A DNA stretch of 64,000 nt from an uncultured Gammaproteobacteria bacterium. Its GTDB lineage: Bacteria > Pseudomonadota > Gammaproteobacteria > GCA-002705445 > GCA-002716945. This document shows positions 10,380 to 17,434 of the stretch, piece after piece. The position numbers and the translations under genes are program-made. The notes below the pieces were generated by a model that did not search any database, was not told the DNA's origin, and saw only the letters and a list, made by a program, of their open reading frames with translations. The DNA lies in assembly GCA_902628335.1 (NCBI GenBank), contig CACOMO010000001.1, positions 173,313 through 237,312 on the forward strand, read 5' to 3'. Within the stretch, counting starts at the first letter, position 1, and every line of letters begins with the position of its first letter.

Positions 10380-12242
10380 TTATGAAGCTTCAGATTCGTC
10401 TGTTTCTTCATCAATCAAATGGTATAAAGGAGCCTTTTCCATTTCAAATTTGCCTGTTTTAGGATCTCTTCTTGATACCGTCAAGCAATGCCAATTTTCA
10501 TCATCAAGTTTGAGAAAGTCACCTCTATAATAGTAACCAGGCCAACGAGTTTCCTCTCTAAATAGAGTGTGTTCTGTCACACATTGTGAAACTAGCGCTC
10601 TATGTTTTACTTCCCATGCCCGCATCAGCTGATGATAGTCTTCAGCGCCAATGTGCTCTAAATCCTCTTGAAGAATTCCCAAATCCTTTAAGGCTTTTTT
10701 GAGAGTATTACCGTTAGTCATATAATTAGTACCAATACCACCAACATAATCATCCATTATTTTCTGGAGCCTTTGTAATGCTTGTATTGGGAGTAGATAA
10801 CTGGGTGAAACTGTCCCAGCAGTAATTTCGTTTCTGCCAACTTTATAGTTTTCGAGAGGTTTGAAAATTTCATTTTTAAAATCGTCAATTTGCTTCTCTG
10901 TAACAGTTATCCCTTCAGCTTTTCCATCATTGATATATTGAACCGCAGACTTCGCACATATCCTACCCTCTGTAAAGGATCCAGATGAAAATATATGAGG
11001 CGTGCCACCTGCTGCATCGCCTGCACCAAATAAACCATCAACAGTCATCATTCTGTTGTAACCCCAGAAATATTCTGGAGGTGAAAGGTCTTCTGGTCCA
11101 CTCACCCATGCGCCTGAACATGTTGCATGAGAACCCATAACGTATGGCTCAGAAGTTGTAAGTTCTGGATTTTGATATTTAGGATCTATGTCTTGTGATG
11201 CCCAAACAACGGCTTGACCAACAGTCATACCTAAGAAGTTCTCCCAACCAATGACCTCAAGATGAGGGTCCTGGAAAGCTTCCATTGTTACCATATGAAT
11301 AGGTCCACCGCCAGCTGCAGTTTCTTGAATAAAGGCGTGATTCCTCAAACATGTTGGTCTAGGTACGTGGTCGATGTACTCACCAACAATTGCTTTAGTA
11401 TTGTCATACCATTTTTCTTCGTAATTTTCACCAGCTGCATTTTGAGTATAGGTTTTTAAATGGAGGAAATACGCTCCAACAGGACCGTAACCGTCCTTGA
11501 ACCTTGTGAGTACAATTCTATTTTCCATTTGTGTCATTTTGGCACCAACAGCAATTGGTAAAGCATAGGCTGACCCGTTGCTCCATGGGGCATACCATGT
11601 TCTTCCCATACCCTCACCAACAGCACGTGGTTTAAATAAATGAGAAGCTCCGCCAGCACAACATATCACGGTTTTAGATCTAAATACGTGATAATCACCT
11701 GTTCGCATATTAAAGCCAACGGCTCCTCCGATTCTATTATCTTGTGTTTCATCCATCAAAAGATGTGTGATCATTACTCTGTTGTATATTTTATCTGCAG
11801 ATTTTTTTGCTGCTTCCGCCACTATAGGCTTGTAGCTCTCGCCATGAATCATAATCTGCCACTTTCCCTCACGTTGGTAACGGCCAGTTTTTTCATTTCT
11901 CATTAGAGGAAGACCCCATTCTTCGAACATATGAACTGCAGAATCTACATGGCGTGCCGCATCATATGCCAGGTCTTCTCGAACCATTCCCATTAAATCA
12001 TTTCTAGCATATCTTACAAAATCCTCAGGTTGATTCTCATCCCAGCGCATCCCCATATAACAGTTTATCGCGTAAAGCCCTTGTGCCACAGCTCCACTCC
12101 TGTCAATATTTGCTTTCTCGGCACAAATGATTTTCATGTCACGACCCCAGTATCTTGATTCGAAAGTGGCACCAGTTCCAGCCATACCTCCACCAACAAC
12201 TAAAATATCGCAATCTTCATAAATAGTTTTTGTCTTCGCCAT
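10380..12242 (-). CDS. aprA: Adenylylsulfate (APS) reductase alpha subunit, FAD flavoprotein
   Basis: N-terminal FAD fold DILVVGGGMAGTGA. 620 aa with the AprA-typical length and sequence. Immediately follows aprB (TAATG overlap). Confidence 0.93.
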   Translation of the reverse strand: MAKTKTIYEDCDILVVGGGMAGTGATFESRYWGRDMKIICAEKANIDRSGAVAQGLYAINCYMGMRWDENQPEDFVRYARNDLMGMVREDLAYDAARHVDSAVHMFEEWGLPLMRNEKTGRYQREGKWQIMIHGESYKPIVAEAAKKSADKIYNRVMITHLLMDETQDNRIGGAVGFNMRTGDYHVFRSKTVICCAGGASHLFKPRAVGEGMGRTWYAPWSNGSAYALPIAVGAKMTQMENRIVLTRFKDGYGPVGAYFLHLKTYTQNAAGENYEEKWYDNTKAIVGEYIDHVPRPTCLRNHAFIQETAAGGGPIHMVTMEAFQDPHLEVIGWENFLGMTVGQAVVWASQDIDPKYQNPELTTSEPYVMGSHATCSGAWVSGPEDLSPPEYFWGYNRMMTVDGLFGAGDAAGGTPHIFSSGSFTEGRICAKSAVQYINDGKAEGITVTEKQIDDFKNEIFKPLENYKVGRNEITAGTVSPSYLLPIQALQRLQKIMDDYVGGIGTNYMTNGNTLKKALKDLGILQEDLEHIGAEDYHQLMRAWEVKHRALVSQCVTEHTLFREETRWPGYYYRGDFLKLDDENWHCLTVSRRDPKTGKFEMEKAPLYHLIDEETDESEAS

Positions 12243-12718
12243 TAGTAATACACTCCTTGTTTAAGTTTTCCAACTTTAGCCATCTCTGGTAAAATGCCAT
12301 CTTCTCTCTTAAGATATTTAGGCTCGTTGTATAGCAATTGTGAATTAAAATCGTCTTTAGTTGGTTTATTTTTTTCTGCAAGCTTAGGTATGTATTTACC
12401 CCACGGTTGAGTTGTAATTGGGGAGACGAAATTCTTGATGGTTCCATTCCTAAACTTGATTTTCCAAGAAATGGTCCCTTTCTCCTCCTCTCGAAGGACT
12501 CTAACTTTATGTCCCATGGGCGCAAAATCTGCATAACCTCTTACGTCAATCGCATTTTGAGGACATGCCTTCACACATGAGTAGCACTCCCAGCAAAAAT
12601 TAGGTTCAATGTTAACTGCTCTTCTGATTAATTTATCGATGTGCATAATATCTGATGGACAAATATCTACACAGTGTCCACATCCATCACATCTTGTCAT
12701 ATATACATAAGTTGACAT
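12242..12718 (-). CDS. aprB: Adenylylsulfate reductase beta subunit (2x[4Fe-4S])
   Basis: Two ferredoxin motifs, CDGCGHCVDICP and CWECYSCVKACP, plus the AprB-type C-terminal tail; 158 aa. Confidence 0.93.
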   Translation of the reverse strand: MSTYVYMTRCDGCGHCVDICPSDIMHIDKLIRRAVNIEPNFCWECYSCVKACPQNAIDVRGYADFAPMGHKVRVLREEEKGTISWKIKFRNGTIKNFVSPITTQPWGKYIPKLAEKNKPTKDDFNSQLLYNEPKYLKREDGILPEMAKVGKLKQGVYY

Positions 12719-12729
12719 TTTATCTCTCC

Positions 12730-13521
12730 TTAATAATTTTGTGGCTCTGAGCGTTTAATTCCCAAGCCATATTGTTTAGGTTTGTCTGCCGGTTCAGGCA
12801 GAAAATCTCTTGAGCCATCTGCCTCAGCTAGATGTTTTTGTATTGCTGCACCAGGTTTGTAAAACATGTGAGCGAATTTCGACCAGTACACTCCACCAAA
12901 TAATACTACGTTCGATAGAATGAATAAGAACAGGAATAATGAAGATAGTCCTGCAGAACCGATTGATTGGAAAAAGGACCACAATAACCCAAAAGTAGAT
13001 GTCGCCACTAATGCTAAAACAAAAAGATCTGCCATAACAACTCGATTCCATGGATTACCCTCTGATCTGACATCAACTCTCAGAAAGAACCAAAACCAAT
13101 ACCCACCAAGACAAGTCATTAATGCGCCAATATGCCATAAAACAGGATATAAAATCGGAGTTGCAGACGAAGTTGGATAACTAAAAATCATTATGACTGA
13201 CGTAACCCAAAAAATTATTGTCCCATACATTCCAAGTAAGTGCGCTACTCTTCTTTTAAACCCACAGAACTCTGCAGACGTAGCCACATCATTCGCAAGA
13301 GTTTTTGCAATTATGGCAACTTTCTCACCAGCTGGTACATGACGTGTAGCAGATTTTTTAAGTTTTTTTGAATTTTCAAAAAAGTACTTTGCGTTTTTTT
13401 TGTGAATCATGTCTAGTACAGTTCCCCCAACAGTAAGGGCGACCATTACAAGAACAAAGACTTGCATAGCAATGGGCGATATAAAACTAGAAAGTTCTAC
13501 GAATGGATTTATTGAAAACAT
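12730..13521 (-). CDS. aprM: APS reductase membrane anchor AprM (multi-helix integral membrane protein)
   Basis: 263 aa with about 5 hydrophobic helices. Sits between sat and aprB exactly as in sat-aprMBA loci of sulfur oxidisers. SD GGGAG lies upstream of the ATG. Confidence 0.7.
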   Translation of the reverse strand: MFSINPFVELSSFISPIAMQVFVLVMVALTVGGTVLDMIHKKNAKYFFENSKKLKKSATRHVPAGEKVAIIAKTLANDVATSAEFCGFKRRVAHLLGMYGTIIFWVTSVIMIFSYPTSSATPILYPVLWHIGALMTCLGGYWFWFFLRVDVRSEGNPWNRVVMADLFVLALVATSTFGLLWSFFQSIGSAGLSSLFLFLFILSNVVLFGGVYWSKFAHMFYKPGAAIQKHLAEADGSRDFLPEPADKPKQYGLGIKRSEPQNY

Positions 13522-13693
13522 ACAATCTCTCTCCCTATAGTATTAATTCCCTCTCTATGTCAGAAAACGGGAATTCCTGGTCCTAAAATACTACAATCCA
13601 TTGTATGGTAATTAGATTCCTTTCACTCATAAGATTATAGAATAAATTAACTGTATTAGGAATTAATTATTCACAAAAAACTGCAAAAACTTG

Positions 13694-14890
13694 CTATTTG
13701 GAACGATAATAACTCTTGAGAATATCAGCTACTTCTTTCCTAGCAAATTCTGGAGGTAAGTCTTCGTTATTTGACAGCATTTCCCTAACTTTTGTGCCGG
13801 AAAGGAGAACGAAATCGTCTTTAGTATGATCGCTTACATCTCTCATCATGACCACTTTATCTAATTTTTTAGAATAAGCGGTATGATCAGCCGCAAAGAT
13901 TTGTATTTTTAGCGACTCTTCTACAATACTTTTCTGAAATATTTCCTGAGCTGCAAAGGGGTCGTAATAGTCACCTACTCCAGCATGATCTCTTCCCACA
14001 ATTAAATGAGAGCATCCACAATTTTGTCTAAAAGTTGCGTGAAGTAGAGCTTCTCTGGGTCCTGCATACATCATGTCAAAACCAAAACCTGATATTAATG
14101 CTGTATTGGGTTGAAAATATAAATCCACCATTTTTCTTATTGCTGCATCTCTAACATCGCCGGGTATATCTCCTTCCTTAAGCTTTCCGAGAGTCATGTG
14201 TATCAAAACTCCATCTGCATTAAGAGATTCCAAAGCCATTTTACAGAGTTCCTCGTGAGCTCTGTGCATCGGATTCCTTGTTTGAAACGCTACTACTTTA
14301 CGCCATTTTAATGAGTCAAGCTTATTTCTGATCCCCATAGCAGTGTCAAACGTATTTGGGAATTCTTCAGGAAAGTAACTATAGTTTAATACTTTGATTG
14401 GGCCTGCAATTAATGTAGATCCTTGATTTATAAAATTCTTAACACCAGGGTGATTAGAATCTTTAGTCCCAAAAACATTCTCTAATATAACCTCTAACTC
14501 ATGAGCAGATAAAGTGTCAACAGAGGTTATAGTCTGAATTGCGATTGGGCGTTCATCAGAGTAATTTGGATCTAAAAGTACCAACTCTTCGCCTTTGCTA
14601 AATTCTGTAGATTTCAAGGTTGATAAATTAATAATTGGAACTGGCCAAAAAAGTCCCTCTTTAGTTTGCATTTGTAATGCTACATTCAAAGCGTCTTCTT
14701 TATCCATAAAGCCATCCAAAGGAGTAAAATAACCTGCTCCTAACATCACAACATTGGCCGCAGCAGATGAATTCAGCTTTTGACGCTTAGAAAGCGAAGC
14801 TGCCTCGATAATTTCCCTTAATCTCTCTTTATCGCTAATTATTAGGGGTTTAAGTTCTTTTGAACCATGTGGCTCTATCAAATTTGTCAT
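13694..14890 (-). CDS. sat: Sulfate adenylyltransferase (ATP sulfurylase)
   Basis: Motifs VAFQTRNPMHRAHEEL and LIVGRDHAGVG. Start trimmed from the ORF-track 14938 to the ATG at 14890 (MTNLIEPHG...), which matches the usual Sat N-terminus. Confidence 0.92.
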   Translation of the reverse strand: MTNLIEPHGSKELKPLIISDKERLREIIEAASLSKRQKLNSSAAANVVMLGAGYFTPLDGFMDKEDALNVALQMQTKEGLFWPVPIINLSTLKSTEFSKGEELVLLDPNYSDERPIAIQTITSVDTLSAHELEVILENVFGTKDSNHPGVKNFINQGSTLIAGPIKVLNYSYFPEEFPNTFDTAMGIRNKLDSLKWRKVVAFQTRNPMHRAHEELCKMALESLNADGVLIHMTLGKLKEGDIPGDVRDAAIRKMVDLYFQPNTALISGFGFDMMYAGPREALLHATFRQNCGCSHLIVGRDHAGVGDYYDPFAAQEIFQKSIVEESLKIQIFAADHTAYSKKLDKVVMMRDVSDHTKDDFVLLSGTKVREMLSNNEDLPPEFARKEVADILKSYYRSK

Positions 14891-15071
14891 AAAAAATCCA
14901 TAAATTTTTGTTAATATAGCAATTGATGATAGCGACAAGTAATAATATAATCAACGTTGCTGAAAAATCAAAGTAAGTTTTATATTACTAAAATTGTGGT
15001 ATTTTTTACAAGTGATTTTGTTAGTATTTGAAGATTAAAAAAATTGTAAAACGTTATAATAATTAGATAGT

Positions 15072-16991
15072 ATGGAAGAAATTTTAGAAATAAGGGATGG
15101 GTGTAAGACACCATCACAATTACTTAAAAGTAAAGCCTTCGCTCAGTATCTCGAAATTTACAAACGAGAATTCATCAAAGAGCTCAAAAAAAGAGAGGAT
15201 AAAGATCTCAAAGAAGAGGTGCTGCACAAGATACACTATATCGAAAACATAGATCCTAAAGTATTTGTATCTATCTTGGAGGGAGAAACTCCTTTCTCTG
15301 GAGATGAATTGAGAGATTACAAAGATAGTGTTCAATTCCTCGATGGTGCATTTCATCATTACAGGACAAAATCATACACTCGGTTGGTACGACTACACAA
15401 TGAAATCATAGATAATTCACTTAATGCTGAAGAAATTAAAGACAAAGTTTCTGCTAAGGCAGATAAGCTATCTGATCTGATATTGGAAACTCGAAGAATA
15501 CTACTTGTCAAAGTTGGTCTTGGCGCGGGGGTCAGAAGAACCCAAGGTCTAGAGTGTCATCCAAATGTTGCAGTTGGTGAGGTTTCAGGACATTTCGTAA
15601 AATTACCATCAGAGTACTCGAATCTAAATCAAGTGCCTGTGACCACAGCTGCAGACATGAGGACAGGAGTCTACTACACGACTCATGCAAATAAACGTGC
15701 TTTCCCTTTCTTTGCTCTTGATCATAACCCAATAAAAAATGATCTGTTCAATCCAGATGAATATGTAGCAATTCCTTTTGAGATAGGTGCATGGAACATT
15801 CTATGTTACATACATAAAACCCGTGGATATATAGAGATCGAGCCAGGTTTGTTAAACTTATTTCCATTTTCAAAAGTAGAGAACATTACAACTAAACAAC
15901 CAGATGGAATATTCGTATTAGGGTGCCCAAATTCAGATATGAAAGACTTAGGATATTATCATGACGAAGAGAATGACATTTTAGTCGGTTTAATACCTGG
16001 ACTCGATGAATGTCAATATTTTGGGTACGGTAAAAAACCAATGTTAACACTTCATAATGTATTGTGTATTCTCAAGGGAGATTTGCCTCTTCACTGTGGA
16101 GCAACGAGATATGTAGTTAGGTTTGATGAGAAAACTGGTGACCCATATATTTTTGACTCCTTAATCAAAGCAGATGATATGGGACGAGCAATATTAGAAA
16201 AAAATGGTAGCGATGAAGAAGTGCCCTATTTTTACGGAACAGAAACTGGCGCATTTGCCTGTCTAGATGGTTTCAGCGAATATGCAAAAATGCAAATGGA
16301 AGGAAGAGAAATTGGATATAACAAACACTCTGGAACGAATGCTCGTCAAATTGTCCCTGTGACTGAGTATTCTGAAATCTCTACAGGTTCAGAATTAGAT
16401 ATACTCTTATACCTAAATAACTACGATATCATTCCAAAAGGTGAGAGTTGTATGAAAGCAGATATGAAACCAGATGATGCTTTAGAACATTTCAGAAGCG
16501 GTGCAAGAGTTGCAGCTGGTAGTACACAAACACATCGAGGAGAAGTTGAAATTAGCTACTGGGCAAACCCATTCCCTTTACTGAAAGATAAAGAATGGAA
16601 AGTCTTGCCAGAGCACACAGATATATGTGAGAAGTTTGAAAAAATAGAAAAGAGATTTTTTGATAATTTCAAAAAAAGAGTCAAATCAGGAAAAATGAAA
16701 ATAGGTGTTGCTCATAGCATGTTGATGGCTGGTGTTTACAAAGAAAGCACTGACGATGTTTTAACTAAAGGTGGTTTTACCGAAAGAGATCTTGTTGAAC
16801 ATCATGGTCCTGAGCGCGCGGCACATGACATGATTGATCTGATTAAACAAACAGCAATCGAAAAAAGAAAAAGGCTTGGGGGTAATACTAAAGAAGTAGA
16901 TGTTACCATTGCTACTATCGGTGATAGTAGAACAGGGAAATCTGAAATGGCGGAAAAGATGGAAGGTGTTCTGAGCATGAGTTTAATTTAA
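15072..16991 (+). CDS. Uncharacterised PEPCK/HprK-superfamily protein (639 aa) with C-terminal P-loop
   Basis: aa 317-345 FGYGKKPMLTLHNVLCILKGDLPLHCGAT resembles the ATP-PEPCK active-site segment. aa 609-627 VDVTIATIGDSRTGKSEMA resembles the HprK/P Walker A. The rest is unrecognised. Divergent from sat. Confidence 0.6.
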   Translation: MEEILEIRDGCKTPSQLLKSKAFAQYLEIYKREFIKELKKREDKDLKEEVLHKIHYIENIDPKVFVSILEGETPFSGDELRDYKDSVQFLDGAFHHYRTKSYTRLVRLHNEIIDNSLNAEEIKDKVSAKADKLSDLILETRRILLVKVGLGAGVRRTQGLECHPNVAVGEVSGHFVKLPSEYSNLNQVPVTTAADMRTGVYYTTHANKRAFPFFALDHNPIKNDLFNPDEYVAIPFEIGAWNILCYIHKTRGYIEIEPGLLNLFPFSKVENITTKQPDGIFVLGCPNSDMKDLGYYHDEENDILVGLIPGLDECQYFGYGKKPMLTLHNVLCILKGDLPLHCGATRYVVRFDEKTGDPYIFDSLIKADDMGRAILEKNGSDEEVPYFYGTETGAFACLDGFSEYAKMQMEGREIGYNKHSGTNARQIVPVTEYSEISTGSELDILLYLNNYDIIPKGESCMKADMKPDDALEHFRSGARVAAGSTQTHRGEVEISYWANPFPLLKDKEWKVLPEHTDICEKFEKIEKRFFDNFKKRVKSGKMKIGVAHSMLMAGVYKESTDDVLTKGGFTERDLVEHHGPERAAHDMIDLIKQTAIEKRKRLGGNTKEVDVTIATIGDSRTGKSEMAEKMEGVLSMSLI

Positions 16992-17019: not shown

Positions 17020-17047
17020 TTGACATATCAGATAAAATACATATCAT
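17020..17047 (+). promoter_or_regulatory. Putative sigma70 promoter of trxA
   Basis: TTGACA (17020-17025), 16-nt spacer, TATCAT (17042-17047). AGAGGA Shine-Dalgarno precedes the GTG start at 17114. Confidence 0.45.
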
Positions 17048-17113: not shown

Positions 17114-17434
17114 GTGAGTACAGTGCAAAATGTTACGGATGCTAGTTTTGAAACAGACGTTCTCAAATCTGAAGTTCCTGTGTTAATAGATTTTTGGGCG
17201 GAATGGTGTGGACCATGTAAAATACTTGGGCCTGTGATTGATGAAGTTTCAGGTGGCTATGATAATGTTAAATTCATGAAACTTAACATAGATGAAAATC
17301 CCCAGACTGCACCAAAATATGGGATAAGAGGCATACCGACCCTAATGATCTTTAAAAATGGAGAACTCGTAGCGACAAATGTTGGAGTGCTTACAAAGAG
17401 TGAACTAGAAAAATTTATTAATGACAACATTTAA
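17114..17434 (+). CDS. trxA: Thioredoxin
   Basis: Active site WAEWCGPCK; 106 aa; GTG start with a good SD; upstream of rho as in many Proteobacteria. Confidence 0.95.
   Translation: MSTVQNVTDASFETDVLKSEVPVLIDFWAEWCGPCKILGPVIDEVSGGYDNVKFMKLNIDENPQTAPKYGIRGIPTLMIFKNGELVATNVGVLTKSELEKFINDNI

Follow-up and report, generated by a model that had tools for sequence, protein, structure and literature searches.

An open reading frame (ORF) on contig CACOMO010000001.1, from an uncultured Gammaproteobacteria bacterium, encodes a protein with the active-site motifs of phosphoenolpyruvate carboxykinase (PEPCK), in which the Walker-A phosphate-binding loop (P-loop) is found only at the extreme C-terminus. 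The ORF occupies 15072..16991 on the forward strand of the 64,000-nucleotide stretch that was analysed (positions 173,313 to 237,312 of the contig, hereafter the window) and specifies 639 amino acids followed by a TAA stop codon at 16989-16991. Its one Walker-A motif, GDSRTGKS (residues 617-624, including K623), ends 15 residues from the stop and is the sole match when the protein is scanned with [AG]xxxxGK[ST]. No such motif is present between H341, which lies in LHCGAT at residues 340-345, and D368/D369, which lie in IKADDMG at residues 365-371. It is between the corresponding residues that PEPCK and HprK/P, which belong to one fold superfamily, carry their P-loops. An earlier note on this DNA, whose range of 16137-16991 corresponds to residue 356 through to the stop, had described the Walker-A loop as missing from its canonical site and present only at the C-terminal end, and the exact motif positions agree with that description.

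The ORF is complete. The GTG start of trxA is at 17114, 122 nucleotides downstream of the stop, and is followed by rho; no in-frame continuation was found past the stop in the 122-nucleotide spacer, as the earlier note had stated. The features of the protein and of its immediate surroundings are collected in Table 1.

Table 1. Features of the permuted PEPCK-superfamily protein and its locus, in window coordinates (residue numbers are those of the ORF unless PckA is named).
Feature	Position	Strand	Basis
Complete ORF, permuted PEPCK-superfamily protein	15072..16991	+	Full-length homologues of 635-654 residues; AlphaFold; Foldseek
N-terminal, mostly helical region, residues 1-150	15072..15521	+	DSSP of the model; common to the canonical family by hhalign; PEPCK counterpart not established
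YFGYGKK, residues 316-322, counterpart of PckA Y207-GGEM-K212-K213 (phosphoryl-transfer Lys, Mn ligand)	16017..16037	+	Invariant in alignment; hhalign; spacing
Strand, residues 338-351 (PLHCGATRYVVRFD), with H341, counterpart of PckA H232 (Mn ligand)	16083..16124	+	DSSP E338-351; H341 invariant in both families
Six-residue turn, residues 352-357 (EKTGDP), scar of the missing ancestral 22-residue strand/P-loop/half-helix unit	16125..16142	+	22-column gap against 20 canonical sequences; hhalign global
Strand and kinase-2-like motif, residues 358-371 (PYIFDSLIKADDMG), with D368/D369, counterpart of PckA D268/D269	16143..16184	+	DSSP E358-367, E370-377
GTETGAF, residues 389-395, conserved active-site loop	16236..16256	+	G389, E391, G393, A394 and F395 invariant
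N423-A-R425, counterpart of PckA N331-T-R333 (substrate, gamma-phosphate Arg)	16338..16346	+	Invariant in both families; hhalign
Last helix common to the canonical family, residues 572-601, extended here	16785..16874	+	DSSP H572-601 against terminal H565-580 of P0436
Linker, residues 602-607	16875..16892	+	DSSP coil between H572-601 and E608-616; sequence and length vary among homologues
Relocated P-loop strand, residues 608-616 (EVDVTIATI)	16893..16919	+	DSSP, pLDDT about 90; aligns to the canonical internal strand
Relocated Walker-A loop GDSRTGKSE, residues 617-625 (K623, S624)	16920..16946	+	Invariant in the permuted clade; sole Walker-A of the ORF
Relocated P-loop helix, residues 623-634, 12 residues as in canonical helix 375-386 of P0436	16938..16973	+	DSSP; hhalign of tail against canonical columns 354-376
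Promoter-like site upstream of the ORF, TTGATG-17-TATAAT (10/12), within the intergenic region between it and the divergent sat	14923..14951	+	Consensus match only
sat-aprM-aprB-aprA operon, divergent neighbour of the ORF (context, outside the protein)	10380..14938	-	Pfam ATP-sulfurylase, APS-reductase_C, FAD_binding_2

Conservation of the permuted form

Database searches with the ORF protein gave 394 matches, of which the best 120 are 58-96% identical to it and the complete ones 635-654 residues long, and a profile of the deeper branches adds 252 database proteins. A relative is encoded by 189 species-representative genomes, and named sources of the permuted form include the Solemya pervernicosa gill symbiont, Thiohalomonas denitrificans, Ca. 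Venteria ishoeyi and Ca. Thiopontia autotrophica. When 24 homologues extending down to 58% identity were aligned, the terminal GDSRTGKSE was invariant, as was the gapped internal site (LPLHCGxTRY...PYI...KADDMGRA), the mean column identity was 75% and the frame was intact. Across about 230 full-length permuted homologues the terminal consensus is GDSR[TA]GKSE, and a terminal P-loop alone is present in 227 of the 236 permuted-type sequences, the remaining nine being seven fragmentary or frameshifted sequences and two, each from a single contig, that have GKF in place of GKS. The joint conservation of the terminal GDSxTGKSE and the gapped site, which the earlier note had put forward as a check, is thus seen throughout these sequences. 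The further suggestion that a 'DS...(S)LI' pattern is common to the two sites is not upheld, as the last five residues and residues 361-364 both vary among homologues.

That a misassembly, a frameshift or the degeneration of a gene has produced a scrambled PEPCK-like ORF, as the earlier note allowed when it wrote of a rearranged or decaying gene, would be suggested by the unusual motif order and by nothing else. The same architecture and length recur, however, in the roughly 230 full-length homologues, which come from independent assemblies, single-cell genomes and isolates. The 394 and 252 database proteins, the conservation of columns and frame and the presence of relatives in 189 species genomes together refute this explanation, the likelihood of which we consider negligible.

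Several individual sequences deserve comment. The two proteins with GKF, P0095 and P0097 (643 residues, 68% identical to the ORF protein, single-contig metagenomic), read GDSRTGKFE, with Phe replacing the Walker-A motif's Mg2+-binding Ser/Thr, which could be either a sequencing error or a real inactive variant. P0122, a permuted-type protein of 637 residues found in the search of representatives, contains 35 Trp and only 15 Gly and its tail reads VWDSRTWKSE; 25 of the Trp residues sit at columns where the family has a conserved Gly. It would seem likely that this protein comes from an organism in which UGA encodes Gly (genetic code 25; Gracilibacteria or SR1-like) and has been translated with a table in which UGA encodes Trp, in which case the permuted form is not restricted to the Gammaproteobacteria. 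About 20 relatives with 66-71% identity (loci L030-L050), from single-amplified or metagenome-assembled genomes labelled Alphaproteobacteria or Rickettsiales and without sat/apr neighbours, are to be explained either by wrong labels on the bins or by the gene having spread horizontally.

A canonical sister family with an internal P-loop

An exhaustive phmmer search of 1.8 billion representatives gave, as a second tier, about 100 proteins 530-600 residues long at 28-37% identity (E 1e-41 to 1e-12). The sister family, which is unnamed and is here termed canonical, comprises more than 5,700 database proteins of about 575 residues, mostly from Clostridium, Fusobacterium and Anaerococcus, which are labelled at source as 'phosphoenolpyruvate carboxykinase' or 'putative P-loop kinase or ATPase distantly related to PEPCK'. 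In these proteins the P-loop, GDSGAGKSE, is internal and precedes xxIFDDMG by about 25 residues, and the chain ends at a GPxxAAxxLL helix with no tail. The two families have in common end-to-end homology, the N-terminal helical region, the conserved active-site residues, a stand-alone gene context and a PEPCK-like model. In contrast to the canonical proteins, with which its identity is put at 24-31%, the ORF protein has neither the internal GDSGAGKSE nor the GPxxAAxxLL C-terminus; it carries a C-terminal extension, and it also has insertions at residues 505-575 that the canonical family lacks.

When the two families are aligned jointly, the permuted proteins show a clean 22-column gap where 20 canonical relatives carry xNIVIIGDSGAGKSExLEAxR. 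The gap takes out the strand and P-loop together with the helix's first half, and an extension of ~45 residues past the common last helix is present in the permuted proteins only. Comparison of profiles with hhalign gave the same picture: the permuted core, without its tail, gives an end-to-end alignment with the canonical profile (probability 100%, E=4e-102, 535 columns), while the tail profile aligns with canonical columns 354-376, which are the internal P-loop unit (probability 97.1%, E=5e-11, 48% identity), as against E=0.027 for the P-loop of Rho and E=0.0012 for that of PckA, used as controls. The ORF chain stops near the point at which a canonical chain would pass into the Asp-Asp strand. 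On the strength of these profile matches the tail is homologous to the excised unit. A chance motif is rejected, given the invariance of the terminal motif in the homologues and the match of the tail to the internal unit.

All 119 clostridial sequences have an internal P-loop only, and in about 500 sequences internal and terminal P-loops are mutually exclusive, with none having both. Nor was a natural full-length permuted form without the tail found among the sequences in hand. The proposal in the earlier note that the terminal P-loop stands in for the lost internal one therefore has strong comparative support, from the 22-residue gap, the mutual exclusivity and the homology of the tail. Homologues with an internal P-loop or without a terminal one, which the note had named as counter-evidence, are represented only by the sister family, and there they support relocation rather than refuting it.

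With the P-loop unit excluded (508 common columns), the permuted clade is separated by one bipartition in 100 of 100 neighbour-joining bootstraps, and on this phylogeny it arose once. The single bipartition, together with the lack of any protein with two P-loops, makes one transposition, from A-B-C to A-C-B with B as the strand/P-loop/helix unit, the simplest history, and this probably passed through a transient A-B-C-B duplication. By the combined evidence of alignment, profiles and phylogeny the relocation of the unit is real and conserved. In P0171, a canonical-type protein of 551 residues, the internal motif reads GDSRAGKS, so that the invariant Arg of the permuted clade (P-loop position 4) is shared by at least one protein that is not permuted.

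Natural P-loop enzymes with a non-canonical order of motifs and a conserved fold are known in the circularly permuted GTPases YlqF/RbgA, YqeH and RsgA (PMC2848588). There, in a different fold, the whole domain is circularly permuted (G4-G5-G1-G2-G3), whereas in the ORF protein one strand/loop/helix unit has been transposed and the order is otherwise kept. Circular permutation was rejected for the ORF protein: only one 23-residue unit moves and the rest is colinear with the canonical family, which corresponds to a transposition and not to a rotation.

No curated family for either the permuted or the canonical form was found in scans of Pfam and NCBIfam, and searches of PDB sequences with the ORF, the canonical profile or the tail alone gave only chance or generic P-loop matches. 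A description of this rearrangement was not found in Pfam, NCBIfam, the PDB or the searchable literature, and literature searches on the family, on DUF4914 and on relocated Walker-A motifs returned nothing specific.

Resemblance to PEPCK and the position of the tail

The translated pck gene of E. coli K-12 reads Y207-GGEMKK, MHCSAN at 231, GLSGTGKT at 248, LIGDDEHGW at 265 and ENTRVSYP at 330, confirming the motif order of PckA as it had been quoted in the earlier note. Residues Y316, K321, K322, H341, D368, D369 and R425, all invariant in both families, correspond to Y207, K212, K213, H232, D268, D269 and R333 of PckA, and in the tail S619, T621, K623 and S624 stand opposite S250, T252, K254 and T255; M370 is likewise invariant in both families. 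The distance from Y207 to H232 in PckA is 25 residues, as is that from Y316 to H341 in the ORF protein, and R333 of PckA is followed by the AKLAGTE lid motif after 56 residues as compared with 54 in the ORF protein.

The canonical-family profile aligns with PckA residues 148-411 in hhalign (probability 84.5%, E=7e-6), the aligned regions including YGGEMKK, the P-loop, NTR and the lid region; the profile of the close, permuted family matches PckA directly at the weak E=0.037. The LPIHG and DDMG of the family are placed by hhalign opposite LPLKG and WDDDG of PckA, rather than opposite MHCSAN and LIGDD, and the equivalence of H341 with H232 and of D368/D369 with D268/D269 therefore rests on motif spacing and the logic of the strands. 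Most of the by-eye alignment to PckA in the earlier note stands. The correspondences at YGGEMKK, the P-loop and NTR are recovered by hhalign, and the structural matches described below are to PEPCKs only; the His and Asp-Asp stretches come to lie a few residues off in hhalign. Similarly, GTETGAF would by eye be the counterpart of F-E-G-G-C-Y-A in PckA, with hhalign placing this stretch differently.

AlphaFold2, run on the ORF with a 129-sequence alignment, gave a model with a mean predicted local distance difference test score (pLDDT) of 90.1 and a predicted template-modelling score (pTM) of 0.89, and the canonical protein P0436 was modelled with values of 85.9 and 0.86. The top 50 matches of the ORF model in a Foldseek search of the PDB are all PEPCKs, the best being E. 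coli PckA (E=4.8e-12, probability 1.00) with template-modelling (TM) scores of 0.34-0.44. The canonical model also retrieves only PEPCKs, with Thermus PEPCK as the best (E=3.9e-15, TM 0.41-0.51). As modelled, the ORF protein thus has the PEPCK fold. In common with PckA (PF01293; PDB 1AQ2, 2PXZ, 1J3B) it has, besides the fold, the colinear Y-x-G-x-x-K-K, His strand, DD, N-x-R and AxxAGT / xFxAxFG lid, and a Walker-A of the G-x-S-x-T-G-K-[ST] type. It differs in the C-terminal position of that motif, in the extra N-terminal helical region of ~150 residues, in its low TM scores and in a sub-threshold Pfam score. The metal and phosphoryl-transfer residues of PckA are present, and what sets the ORF protein apart from that family is the lack of a Walker-A between the equivalents of the H232 and D268/D269 strands and of a match at the curated threshold. 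With fold similarity in Foldseek and profile homology over the catalytic core, the protein is a member of the PEPCK fold superfamily and a permuted sister of the unnamed clostridial family.

Like the family described here, HprK/P (PF07475) combines a G-D-S-G-x-G-K-S-E P-loop with a hydrophobic strand that comes after it and ends in DD, and the earlier note had drawn a specific parallel with it. The ORF protein keeps the PEPCK-specific YxGxxKK and NxR, however, and its size and domain make-up are unlike those of HprK/P. Chains of HprK in the PDB match the canonical profile at E values no better than 0.1 and over some 20 residues of the P-loop only, and HprK was not retrieved in the PDB search with the tail alone, so the parallel reduces to a generic P-loop resemblance. 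Membership of HprK/P was rejected: Hpr_kinase_C has no match to the ORF and its best match to a relative has E=0.14.

The secondary structure of the two models, as assigned by DSSP, shows where the unit has gone. In P0436 the His strand (346-357) is followed by a strand at 362-368, the P-loop, a helix of 12 residues (375-386) and the DD strand (390-406), and the terminal helix is at 565-580. In the ORF model a strand at 338-351 leads through a turn of six residues to strands at 358-367 and 370-377, and much later a helix at 572-601 is followed by a six-residue loop, a strand at 608-616, the P-loop and a helix at 623-634. The tail is modelled as a strand of the sheet, and its pLDDT (85-93) is no lower than the values for the canonical model's internal unit (78-94). 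The match in secondary structure, the homology and the mutual exclusivity together make it very likely that the tail unit takes up the vacated position beside D368/D369.

We therefore favour, with a probability of about 0.72, the reading that this is an intact and conserved protein of PEPCK fold in which the unit has moved from A-B-C to A-C-B, the tail restores the nucleotide site and PEPCK-like phosphoryl transfer is carried out. The ancestral strand/Walker-A/helix unit has been removed from between the His-bearing and Asp-Asp strands and re-attached after the last helix. The C-terminal unit (strand 608-616, GDSRTGKSE 617-625, helix 623-634) would then fold back into the sheet and restore the phosphate-binding loop beside D368/D369, H341 and K321/K322, most likely of the same chain. 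As in PEPCK, a phosphoryl group may then be transferred, in a metal-dependent manner, between a nucleotide and a substrate that is a small carboxylate or enolate. From the comparative data and the models, the rearrangement is a non-circular permutation, and the tail very probably completes the nucleotide site, presumably in cis.

The tail of one subunit might instead enter the vacated P-loop slot of a neighbour, giving a domain-swapped oligomer in which nucleotide binding would depend on assembly. The position of the unit at the extreme C-terminus, behind a variable linker of six residues or more, is a geometry typical of swapped elements, HprK/P, a relative in fold, is an obligate oligomer, and a monomer run of AlphaFold cannot separate cis from trans. 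Set against this, the monomer model is compact and of high confidence, also in the tail (at the pTM and pLDDT values given above), and the linker varies in length among homologues while the unit is never lost. On balance we regard completion in trans as unlikely.

We give even less credence to the terminal P-loop being an independent appendage, that is a regulatory or second phosphate-binding element on a core that has closed up and either works without a Walker-A or has lost catalysis. Joined by so short a turn, the His and DD strands might make a simple hairpin. The loss of the internal unit and the gain of a homologous terminal one coincide perfectly, however, and both the terminal unit and the gap are invariant, like all the other PEPCK-type catalytic residues, a pattern that neither a dead enzyme nor an accessory motif would be expected to show. 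The modelling of the tail as a sheet strand, and not as a free peptide, also argues against an appendage.

A number of observations count against the favoured reading, restoration of the nucleotide site by the relocated unit. The pairing of the tail strand in the vacated slot is deduced from secondary structure, model confidence and homology, and the His and DD strands, joined as they are by a six-residue turn, could pair directly and close the slot. Covariation between tail and core (mutual information with average product correction, 229 sequences, effective number of sequences about 52) was dominated by high-entropy columns and gave no interpretable contacts. No A-B-C-B intermediate with both P-loops was found among the sequences in hand. 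Pfam PEPCK_ATP (PF01293) scores 10.8 bits on the ORF against a cut-off of 26.5 (E=0.2); the NCBIfam scan of the ORF likewise gave no match. For the oxaloacetate/PEP-binding Arg65 of PckA, the invariant R209, in N-K-R, is a candidate counterpart; a low-stringency hhalign comparison aligns the N-terminal domains unreliably. A survey of gene neighbourhoods found no functional partner gene outside one clade, and literature searches found no biochemical data on either the permuted or the canonical family.

Gene neighbourhood and possible function

The ORF is divergent from a sat-aprM-aprB-aprA operon for sulfite oxidation by the adenosine 5'-phosphosulfate (APS) pathway. The identities of sat, aprB and aprA are borne out by Pfam; aprM, which has no Pfam match, is named from its position. 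The adjacency to sat-aprMBA is kept at 23 of 80 related species loci (including L008-L029 and L034). In the close clade (at least 74% identity) it persists even where the downstream trxA-rho has moved; it is absent from all relatives below about 74% identity, and outside the close clade the gene stands alone in unrelated neighbourhoods. As the pairing is limited to the close clade, a link to APS or sulfate metabolism is not claimed. On the other side of the ORF, a sigma-70-like near-consensus site, TTGACA-16-TATCAT (11/12), lies at 17020-17047 (+) in the spacer 5' of trxA and suggests that trxA-rho is transcribed as a unit apart from the ORF; a terminator-like hairpin was not found after the ORF. 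Across the whole window no tRNA, tmRNA, rRNA or Rfam family at the gathering threshold was found, and the GC content is 29-39%.

The complete PEPCK-type catalytic set argues for a nucleotide- and metal-dependent phosphoryl transfer on a small carboxylate or enolate, and from the conserved residues true PEPCK activity of the permuted protein is plausible. More tentatively, and with considerable doubt, the permuted protein may be a working but cryptic PEP carboxykinase, or a related C3/C4 carboxylating kinase, that supplies oxaloacetate in sulfur-oxidising gammaproteobacteria and has been missed by annotation through its topology and divergence. The thiotrophic Thioglobus symbionts of Bathymodiolus have been reported to lack any known oxaloacetate-forming enzyme and are hence inferred to be host-dependent (PMC5270565, PMC5581435). 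A cryptic PEPCK in sulfur-oxidising gammaproteobacteria, if confirmed, would bear on the oxaloacetate-forming enzymes reported to be missing from these symbionts. Compatible with such a role, nucleotide binding could be gated by the terminal Walker-A unit, serving in cis or in trans as a detachable plug.

Walker-A motifs almost always have a set position along the chain, and rules of motif order serve to recognise nucleotide-binding enzymes. In the conserved natural lineage described here the strand/P-loop/helix unit has been shifted downstream by about 260 residues. The lineage is represented in at least 189 species genomes, some of them from abundant marine bacteria; the permuted clade occurs in marine and sulfur-oxidising bacteria, and the rewiring is both rare and conserved. 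With a sister family that retains the ancestral order, the two form a matched pair for studying the modularity of the P-loop beta-alpha element, the evolution of non-circular permutations and the completion of a site by a terminal, possibly swappable, unit. The first of these questions has been raised by work on ancestral P-loop fragments (bioRxiv 10.1101/2020.07.15.204123). Two large unmodelled families of the PEPCK superfamily are thereby defined, both keeping the PEPCK catalytic set, and should PEP and oxaloacetate prove to be their substrates, the metabolism reconstructed for sulfur-oxidising bacteria and for many clostridia would have to be revised.

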